DNA of 64,000 bases, from sequence record PQ666541; one strand, given 5' to 3'. Origin of the DNA: Shigella phage sb3. How positions within the stretch are numbered: the stretch's first letter is position 1; the number at the start of each line of letters is the position of its first letter. The notes beneath the pieces were generated by a model. The model saw only the letters and a list, made by a program, of their open reading frames with translations, ran no database searches and had not been told where the DNA came from. Both the position numbers and the translations under genes were made by a program. Of the stretch, positions 62,241 through 64,000 are shown piece after piece.

Positions 62241-64000
62241 TTATCCTTGAACGAACTTGTAAGGCATGTTTGTAATATCTATGCAAGACGCAATAATTCC
62301 AAGAGATGATTCTACTTTCTGTTTAACATTTGATGAAACAAATGATGCAAAGTCAACTCTGTCTTCTATTTCAATATCACCTGTCATTGCAACTACTTCA
62401 CCAGTTTCCATTAGACGGTCACCGTCATAAATGACTGATTCGGTGAGTTCTTCCGTAGTCATAACTTCAGCTTGAATGAGTTTTGTATTAGTTTTAGTTG
62501 TTCCATCATTATTAGAAGCATCAGTTATTTTATTGACTTTGACCATCAATCCGCGTGGTAGAATAACTTCAGCTTCTGTTGAAGGCGCTAAACTTCCTCC
62601 TGGATATACAACATTAACTTTATGAGCTCCATCAATTGCCCATCCTATTTGAACTAAATTATCGTTTGGATTAATAATTCCTTCTTCATTTTTATCGATA
62701 GAACTGTTAAGACGCTTTTCGTCTGGTAAAAGACCAATACCAGCATGCGTAATCCAAGTACCAAAAATGATAGGAGTTAAAGAAGTAGATACAAAATTTC
62801 TGAAATAGAACACTTTATTTTTAACTAGTGCTTCGTATATAGGAGGTAACATACTTTGAGCACGATAAACTGTAATGCCTTCTGGTATACGATCACCATT
62901 TTCAAAAGCTGAGTCTAAGTTATTTATAGCAGATTCAATTTCTGGTGCTGTTAAAATACTTTTTCACTCATCTGGATTGTAGCGGCCTAAAAGAAGATTA
63001 TTGATGTCAGTATATCCTGATCCACAGTACTCTCTAATGCCGCGCTTTTGCGATGGAGTATATTTAGATGAATCTTTATTTTCGACTATAGAATGCAATG
63101 ACCATCCAATGGTAATATCATATCCACGCAATTCTCTTTGAGGAATCTTAGTTTTTGCTGCGTTCCAGGAATTTTGTAGTTATTTCTTCCCAGCATCTTC
63201 CTTTAAATGCGAATGGTTGTTATTATGTTTATCAAGCCAATTATCTTTATATTCTTCAAAAGTATGATTAACTATAGAAGCAATAGTTTCTAAACATTTT
63301 ATTGAAGTAGTCGGTTCTTTTCGTAATCTTTCTAAAGCTTTAATCTTTATTTCTTCATTAACCTCAGATTCTTTTTGAAAAGAATTTATAGAAGTTCATC
63401 TGAGTTCCATTTCAGCAATAATAGTTTTAGAAGCATTCTCTAATGCAAATCCTGAAGTAGAATTAACAGTTATTTCTTCTGCTTCGGGAATTAAAGGAGC
63501 GGTAGCAGGTTTATTGAAATTAGCTGCAGTAGATTCATACTTCTGGAATAATTCACTTTCAAATCTAGAAGATTCCAATGACTGACTTTGTGCAATTGCT
63601 CTACGGGAAATTTTAACTTTAACGATTACCGCTTGGTCAGAACGTTTATCATTTTCTTGCGCAATAGATGCAGCAATTGCCTCATTTTTAGTTACTTGAG
63701 CTCCAGTATCTTTATTGATATAAACATCACCGACCTTCGATTCAACTTTAGTAAAGAGCTCGGTACTAATTTCAGGAACTCCTGGGATGTCTTCTAATGA
63801 TACATTTTTGCGATGTATAAGAATATATGCATACTTTTTATCGTAATCCCAGAGTTCCTTAAGAAGGACGTATCTGCCACCTGAACGACTGCGGATAAGT
63901 CTATCAGCAATAAGTTGAATTTGACGAGCTTGACCAGCAGTTTTAGACTTAAGAATACGGAGCATACAGGCATCAATTTTATACTGACGCATCGTTTGCA
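62241..64000 (-). pseudogene. second alt-like ADP-ribosyltransferase gene directly upstream of alt, one frame throughout but with three in-frame stops; 5' end beyond the window
   Basis: Hand translation of the minus strand gives a continuous Alt-homologous sequence in a single frame from at least 63992 to 62241, interrupted only by TGA (plus 63396-63398), TAA (63180-63182) and TGA (62964-62966). Segments align to Alt, e.g. MRQYKIDACMLRILKSKTAGQARQIQ versus MKQYKIDACLFRVLKSKTNGAARQMQ and VFYFRNFVSTSL versus MFYFKNFVSTSL. Confidence 0.6.

Follow-up and report, generated by a model that had tools for sequence, protein, structure and literature searches.

Three in-frame stop codons in the alt gene of Shigella phage sb3 are best explained as frame artifacts of a hybrid between two intact alleles

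Results

In the sequence record of Shigella phage sb3 (PQ666541), the ortholog of T4 alt at the end of the window (the whole 64,000-nt stretch of DNA analyzed here) is interrupted by three in-frame stop codons. The gene is best explained as a hybrid of two intact alt alleles, with the stops as frame artifacts. It keeps the length of one natural allele while carrying most of the informative bases of the other, and it is probably a projection of one allele onto the other, a pattern that points to an in-silico consensus as its origin.

Identity of the interrupted gene and its tandem paralog

The genes at the window end follow a Tequatrovirus-type order (gp48, gp54, Alt.-3, a 685-aa Alt-like gene and the interrupted gene). 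The downstream neighbors of the interrupted gene match those in T4, pSs-1, KMB23, AR1 and U115, and what lies upstream of it falls outside the window. The features of the locus are as follows.

62241-64000, minus strand: interrupted gene, T4 alt ortholog (NAD+:arginine ADP-ribosyltransferase), with its first ~99 codons beyond the window edge
62241-62243, minus strand: terminal TAA of the interrupted gene
62454-63176, minus strand: PF03496 ADP-ribosyltransferase domain in the conceptual translation (profile match)
62856-62870, minus strand: VYRAQ motif with Arg, conceptual translation
62778-62795, minus strand: FVSTSL motif with STS, conceptual translation
62550-62576, minus strand: EAEVILPRG motif with ExE, conceptual translation
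60180-62237, minus strand: second Alt-like paralog, intact, 685 aa (PF03496, E = 2.2e-20)
59829-60119, minus strand: Alt.-3 homolog, 96 aa, a synteny marker with 100% amino acid identity to T4 Alt.-3

T4 Alt (NP_049811) is a capsid-packaged NAD+:arginine mono-ADP-ribosyltransferase of family PF03496 that modifies the alpha subunit of RNA polymerase. Over residues 100-682, the interrupted gene shares 80% amino acid identity with it. The resemblance extends to the neighborhood (a second Alt-like gene, Alt.-3, gp54 and gp48) and to the PF03496 domain with its R, STS and ExE motifs, but the window gene differs from T4 alt in carrying three in-frame stops and in being a hybrid of T4-type and 697-aa alleles.

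The 685-aa gene is 37-42% identical to T4 Alt and 99.3% identical (amino acids) to pSs-1 gp209, and its N-terminus is 95% identical to T4 Alt.-1 and 98% identical to T4 Alt.-2. By sequence similarity it is thus the second paralog, of which T4 keeps nothing but the remnants alt.-1 and alt.-2. A first-pass annotation made from the letters alone had given the name alt to this downstream gene and had treated the interrupted gene as the extra copy, so that the two labels were reversed. It had also regarded the duplication itself as notable; since two intact tandem Alt genes occur in hundreds of Tequatrovirus records, including KMB23, U115, AR1, pSs-1 and phage 132, the duplication is the normal state. 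The spacer between the terminal TAA and the next ATG (62237), given there as 1 nt, is 3 nt long (ATC, in TAA ATC ATG). Gene conversion from the downstream paralog was considered as a source of the interrupted sequence and rejected, as this paralog alone paints only 13 nt of it and its protein identity is 37%.

One reading frame with three internal stops

From 63998 to 62241 on the minus strand, the interrupted gene is read in a single frame of 585 codons, of which codons 201, 273 and 345 are internal stops. Translation bore out the positions that had been read from the sequence (TGA at 63396-63398, TAA at 63180-63182 and TGA at 62964-62966), and both stop-to-stop intervals are indeed exactly 216 nt. 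The claim that Alt homology runs through the whole frame likewise held: when the stops were masked, PF03496 matched residues 275-515 of the conceptual translation (E = 9.8e-35), scoring 120.1 bits against a curated cut-off of 23.4. The R, S-T-S and E-x-E residues of this conceptual Alt are, from what is known of the family, presumably its catalytic motifs.

The third stop lies within the PF03496 domain. The longest uninterrupted pieces of the gene are 198+ aa and 203 aa; the latter (62241-62852) is the longest downstream ORF and begins after the presumed catalytic Arg. With three internal stops, the gene does not provide an uninterrupted ORF of about 682-697 codons.

The gene combines two natural allele classes

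Intact alt alleles fall into two classes. Class A encodes 697 aa and is found, for example, in Escherichia phage vB-Eco-KMB23 (WQN07456) and phage 132 (QWY90564), while class B is the T4 type of 682-686 aa (T4, pSs-1, U115 and AR1). The two share 72% protein identity and are separated by many indels, whereas within class B the Alt of pSs-1 (NC_025829, gp210, 684 aa) is 96% identical to T4 Alt. The interrupted gene is close to neither. Its best match among 536 phage records (megablast) is 88.5%, to class A, and the best match of its central 541 nt is only 82.3%; among 5.8 billion proteins the best match is 83%. The flanking 4.5 kb, unlike the interrupted alt, are 98.4% identical to known phages.

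In length, the gene follows class B. Alignment with pSs-1, U115 and AR1 requires zero gaps over 1760 nt, whereas alignment with KMB23 requires many, and class A is 39 nt longer than the window over the same span. The indels of class A, including those of +8, +14, +30 (near 62662) and -17 nt, are all missing from the window. Although length and register agree with the pSs-1 allele over all 1760 nt, the sequence differs from it by 238 substitutions (13.5%).

In base content, the gene largely follows class A, which supplies most of the informative bases. Nearly all of the substitutions relative to pSs-1 (226 of 238) lie inside exact A-type 9-mers, leaving only 12 nt that neither the A nor the B allele accounts for. 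An A-type match was counted as being in the frame of class A only when its offset was a multiple of 3; such in-frame exact matches total 1331 nt. The exact A-type matches are colinear, at successive offsets of 0, -15, -3, -4, +4, 0, 9, 10, 9, 8, 9, 23, 6, 9, 12, 42 and 39. Each of these 16 offset changes is resolved to the length of B: the extra bases of A (8, 14 and 30 nt, among others) are absent, and where A is shorter, B bases fill the space. The first-pass annotation had reported a frame without frameshift, which is correct relative to the T4/pSs-1-type allele and incorrect relative to class A, with its 16 offset changes and five out-of-frame patches.

The same behavior is seen at 14 sites where KMB23 and pSs-1 differ by an indel. 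There, donor SNPs are present within 12 nt on both sides, and the recipient length is kept. The stretches of the interrupted alt where the alleles are most divergent stay B-type. Some hybrid junctions fall where the alleles share only 3-6 nt. Examples of hybrid junctions in the window are CAGATGAACTT joined to CTATAAATTC, and CAGATGAACTTCTATAAATTC, GGGAAGAAATAACTACAAAATTCC and CCAGATGAGTGAAAAAGTATTTTA. A natural recombinant is expected to show donor tracts with donor indels and crossovers in shared identity, and the gene does not have this structure. As judged from these alignments, the interrupted alt combines two natural allele classes in a chimera whose length is that of class B.

All three stops lie in out-of-frame patches

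Because the indels of class A were not carried over, five A-type patches are misread in the frame of class B. These out-of-frame patches total 73 nt and are listed in the order of the gene, with the class A reading where a stop results.

63391-63402, minus strand: CAGATGAACTTC, 12 nt, offset -4, containing stop 1 (TGA, 63396-63398); class A reads GAT GAA CTT
63371-63391, minus strand: CTATAAATTCTTTTCAAAAAG, 21 nt, offset +4, without a stop
63177-63193, minus strand: CTGGGAAGAAATAACTA, 17 nt, offset +10, containing stop 2 (TAA, 63180-63182); class A reads GAA ATA ACT
63137-63146, minus strand: ATTCCTCAAA, 10 nt, offset +8, without a stop
62959-62971, minus strand: ATGAGTGAAAAAG, 13 nt, offset +23, containing stop 3 (TGA, 62964-62966); class A reads ATG AGT GAA AAA

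The window lacks the 8 nt that precede CTATAAATTCTTTTCAAAAAG in class A, CATTATGA, and has B-type bases in the 4 nt after CTATAAATTCTTTTCAAAAAG (AATC). The ATGAGTGAAAAAG island is isolated between a 14-nt and a 17-nt gap and matches B at 10 of its 13 positions.

All three stops fall within these 73 nt, and the in-frame A matches, 1331 nt in total, contain none. When class A is read out of frame, 6-17% of its codons are stops, so that the ~24 shifted codons predict 1.5-4 stops, compared with the three observed. No stop is due to a single-base nonsense change: each lies within a run of 3-7 changes that together restore an A-type word, shifted out of its frame. At the three stop sites pSs-1 has GAA, TTA and CGT. 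Comparison with relatives, which had been proposed as a check, gave sense codons throughout: the 120 T4-type proteins closest to it carry E, L and R, and the genes of class A are intact. Sense codons at all three sites in independent sequences were what the first-pass annotation had named as the sign of an artifact.

Equal spacing of the stops

The first-pass annotation placed considerable weight on the equal spacing of the stops and suggested looking for a 216-nt repeat. Autocorrelation at lag 216 gave z = 0.34, with no periodicity, which rules out a 216-nt repeat or a 72-codon module. The three stop patches are unrelated in sequence and have different offsets (-4, +10 and +23), and the spacing is therefore left without a structural basis. 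For three random codons among 333, the chance of equal spacing, calculated post hoc, is about 0.0045. The 216/216 spacing looks like coincidence.

In-silico projection of class A onto class B

The projection was reproduced by aligning the intact KMB23 allele to the intact pSs-1 allele and transferring aligned bases only; insertions were left out, and deletions received the pSs-1 sequence. With BWA-MEM-like scoring, the product was 94.8% identical to the window, compared with 86.5% for pSs-1 alone. Its only in-frame stops were those at exactly 63398 and 62966, and stretches of 50-100 nt were exact, including the contexts of both reproduced stops. Other scoring schemes gave stops at 63182 and 63398. 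Thus, ~95% of the sequence was reproduced, although no single scoring scheme gave all three stops at once. The remaining differences between projection and window consist of the most ambiguous stretches and a few private SNPs, and a local-identity filter brought no real gain (93.9% at best).

The remainder of the window

The closest genome to the whole window is that of pSs-1, which aligns as one 64-kb HSP at 96.8% identity with 2045 mismatches and 5 gap openings. Because the window also carries five clean indels relative to pSs-1, the process that produced its sequence was not strictly substitution-only. The ratio of gaps to mismatches against pSs-1 is 0.0024, and natural phages sharing the pSs-1 allele classes give 0-0.005. 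A genome-wide gap deficit was considered as proof of an artifact, and this argument is weakened by the equally low values of natural same-allele pairs. Within the window, the signature of donor SNPs flanking indels was found in alt only.

The best match of wac (29573-31030) is only 92.4%. This gene has an ECO07P4-type background with pSs-1 bases where the alleles differ most (mean local divergence 44% vs 22%, AUC 0.90). Long runs identical to pSs-1 also occur in accessory regions and were considered as proof of retained reference sequence, a proof that they do not provide, as natural mosaicism would look alike. Such mosaicism could also be the source of the patchwork in wac.

Searches for the hybrid in other collections

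The 24-mers spanning the hybrid junctions were absent from viral, metagenome and genome collections. No match to the hybrid alt was found in E. coli genome and plasmid collections, and exact-protein look-ups found no exact ORF of the hybrid on record. IMG/VR, which holds few Tequatroviruses, contained only 10 related loci and gave one positive-control match, so that its negatives are weak. Searches of the literature turned up nothing specific to the alt locus or to the assembly of such a genome.

Discussion

The observations on the interrupted alt are most readily accounted for by a consensus step. Reads or contigs from a phage with an A-type allele would have been laid on a pSs-1-like reference. 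A bases would have been taken wherever A and B align base to base, with complex indels left uncalled and the length of B kept. The codons of A that lie between neighboring indel sites would then lie 1 or 2 nt out of the frame of B, and three of the resulting out-of-frame patches would yield TGA, TAA and TGA. Substitution-only transfer of this kind would be the expected product of a reference-guided or polished consensus. Chimeras generated by such consensus procedures keep the length of the reference, take the substitutions of the sample, drop complex indels and retain the reference where divergence is highest. The window shows the same pattern, but elsewhere it carries a few simple indels relative to pSs-1. 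The short A-type islands, too, seem better suited to an aligner than to DNA pairing. The absence of the hybrid from the collections searched also favors a computational origin, and the wac patchwork and the colinearity with pSs-1 would be consistent with it without deciding the matter. Sequencing or assembly error had been named as one option in the first-pass annotation and is the best-supported of those listed there, given the length-preserving A/B chimera and the sense codons of the relatives. If the gene is a consensus projection, the stops are most likely not present in the phage itself, and its real alt is probably an intact A-type gene.

Other computational routes to a chimera were rejected. 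A strain-mixing de Bruijn chimera does not fit junctions that share only 3-10 nt and whose sequences are in neither parent, and a majority consensus of many genomes would be expected to give one allele class throughout.

The dead gene would be real if homeologous recombination in vivo had joined a resident T4-type allele with an A-type allele brought in by co-infection, which we consider unlikely. The route would involve a long heteroduplex in which loops and bubbles are repaired to the resident length while mismatches escape repair, the invading bases then being fixed by replication. Recombination is very active in T-even phages, where clustered exchanges (high negative interference) have long been known. 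Hybridization of DNA in vivo is also aligner-like, so that the same product could conceivably arise by a biological route, and the structure of the chimera is likewise what base pairing combined with loop repair would be expected to leave. In T4, alt is not essential, and a dead recombinant could thus be maintained. Elsewhere the window has the look of a healthy genome, with 77 of 78 pSs-1 proteins aligning to it without stop codons, and the restriction of the indel signature to alt also speaks for this route. However, such an exchange needs a ~1-kb heteroduplex with ~16 loops between alleles that are only 79-88% identical per 500-nt window, and every loop must be set to the resident length while mismatches 1-3 nt away keep the donor base. 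Islands of 10-13 nt with 3 mismatches, held between loops of 14 and 17 nt, would presumably be unstable, and neither the 536 phage records nor the large collections contained a second hybrid. It seems doubtful, somewhat more so than the recombination itself, that the sequence is a natural footprint of T-even loop repair in a ~1-kb heteroduplex between alleles only 75-85% identical, with all of its loops set to resident length.

The differences themselves also bear on whether the gene is a young pseudogene, namely a third natural allele class between A and B that recently acquired three nonsense mutations. Alt alleles are highly diverse and mosaic, and T4 keeps decayed remnants of the second paralog in alt.-1 and alt.-2, which are annotated in T4 as an old, stop-interrupted duplication of the start of alt. 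These are a genuinely decayed paralog; unlike the window gene, they are remnants of the other paralog, truncated and not hybrid. We regard a third class as improbable, since no protein above 83% was found among 5.8 billion and no DNA above 88.5% among 536 records, and since the stops lie within A-type words of 3-7 changes instead of arising from single-base changes. Only 12 private nucleotides and zero indels are also unlike ordinary decay. The earlier suggestion of a duplicate recently inactivated by decay is likewise not supported, 226 of 238 differences from pSs-1 being exact A-type words, without indels.

Functional or deliberate stops, whether through readthrough or recoding, suppression by phage tRNAs or engineered nonsense mutations, would explain a frame kept over 585 codons and the regular spacing, and are nevertheless the least credible of the explanations, to the point of being very improbable. 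The stops are conserved in no relative, which also speaks against the readthrough or recoding that had been proposed. They mix TGA and TAA in differing contexts, the residues that flank them are out-of-frame A codons and not conserved protein, and the spacing has no counterpart in a 216-nt periodicity. Engineered or suppressor-dependent nonsense mutations, also raised earlier, are at odds with the multi-base patches and the mix of TGA and TAA; the 10 tRNAs in the 64-kb window are all ordinary, none of them having a stop-reading anticodon.

There is no evidence of new biology or recoding at this locus, and Alt, its tandem paralog and the diversity of alt alleles were already known. For quality control, the hybrid alt should be counted neither as a pseudogene nor as a readthrough candidate or new allele, and caution is advised for other highly divergent genes of PQ666541, such as wac. 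Were the sequence real, T-even heteroduplex processing between very divergent alleles would have left a rare natural record here, and an origin in vivo would mean that homeologous exchange can scramble reading frames while leaving gene length unchanged.

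Comparison of the window with Shigella phage pSs-1

The closest genome, Shigella phage pSs-1 (NC_025829), aligns to window positions 1-64000 in a single blastn HSP with 96.8% identity, 2045 mismatches and five gap openings (at approximately 10016, 11397, 12901, 18247 and 47586). When pSs-1 proteins were aligned to the window, 77 of 78 did so without stop codons, and the same proportion (77/78) was free of gaps. The features discussed here are as follows.

4625-5113, minus strand: gene 84.6% identical in protein to pSs-1, zero gaps
9767-10598, minus strand: ten clustered tRNA genes (Arg, Asn, Tyr, Met, Thr, Ser, Pro, Gly, Leu, Gln)
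29573-31030, plus strand: wac (fibritin), intact, gap-free ORF
37955-38611, plus strand: accessory ORF, located between the genes for tail sheath and tail tube
47604-49022, minus strand: hoc, 92.8% identical in protein to pSs-1, zero gaps
59829-60119, minus strand: 96-aa Alt.-3 homologue, 100% identical to T4 Alt.-3
60180-62237, minus strand: second Alt-like paralogue, intact, 685 aa

All ten tRNA genes of the cluster carry ordinary anticodons. Across 4600-5900, the closest DNA match is 96.4% identical, and for wac it reaches only 92.4% (499 records). The background of wac is of the ECO07P4 type, and bases of the pSs-1 type occupy the stretches where divergence is highest (AUC 0.90); the gene may be a hybrid of the same kind as the interrupted alt gene.

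The accessory ORF lies within a 901-nt run that is 100% identical to pSs-1 (37925-38825); Escherichia phage vB-Eco-KMB23 (KMB23) is without this ORF over 655 nt. Further long pSs-1-identical runs occur at 2588-3146, 3173-3618, 7051-7786 and 8849-9442, all in variable regions. These identical runs could be stretches of the reference that were retained, or mobile DNA that was shared recently.

The Alt-like genes

The 685-aa gene had been labelled alt in the first-pass annotation, but it is actually the second Alt-like paralogue; its amino acid identity to T4 alt.-1 is 95% and to alt.-2 98%. In T4 this paralogue is reduced to these N-terminal remnants, whereas in the window it is intact. The terminal TAA of the interrupted gene is separated from the ATG of the 685-aa gene by 3 nt, ATC (window 62238-62243), rather than by the 1 nt originally reported.

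Intact natural alt alleles of the 697-aa class found in KMB23 (L001, 3706-5799) and of the T4/pSs-1 type (L015, 12521-14575) share several short patches that are similar at the nucleotide level in shifted registers, for example ATGAGTGAAAAAG versus ATGAGCGTACAAG. Compensated frameshifts may therefore be the source of part of the Alt protein divergence between the two allele classes, although such patches could also reflect chance similarity.
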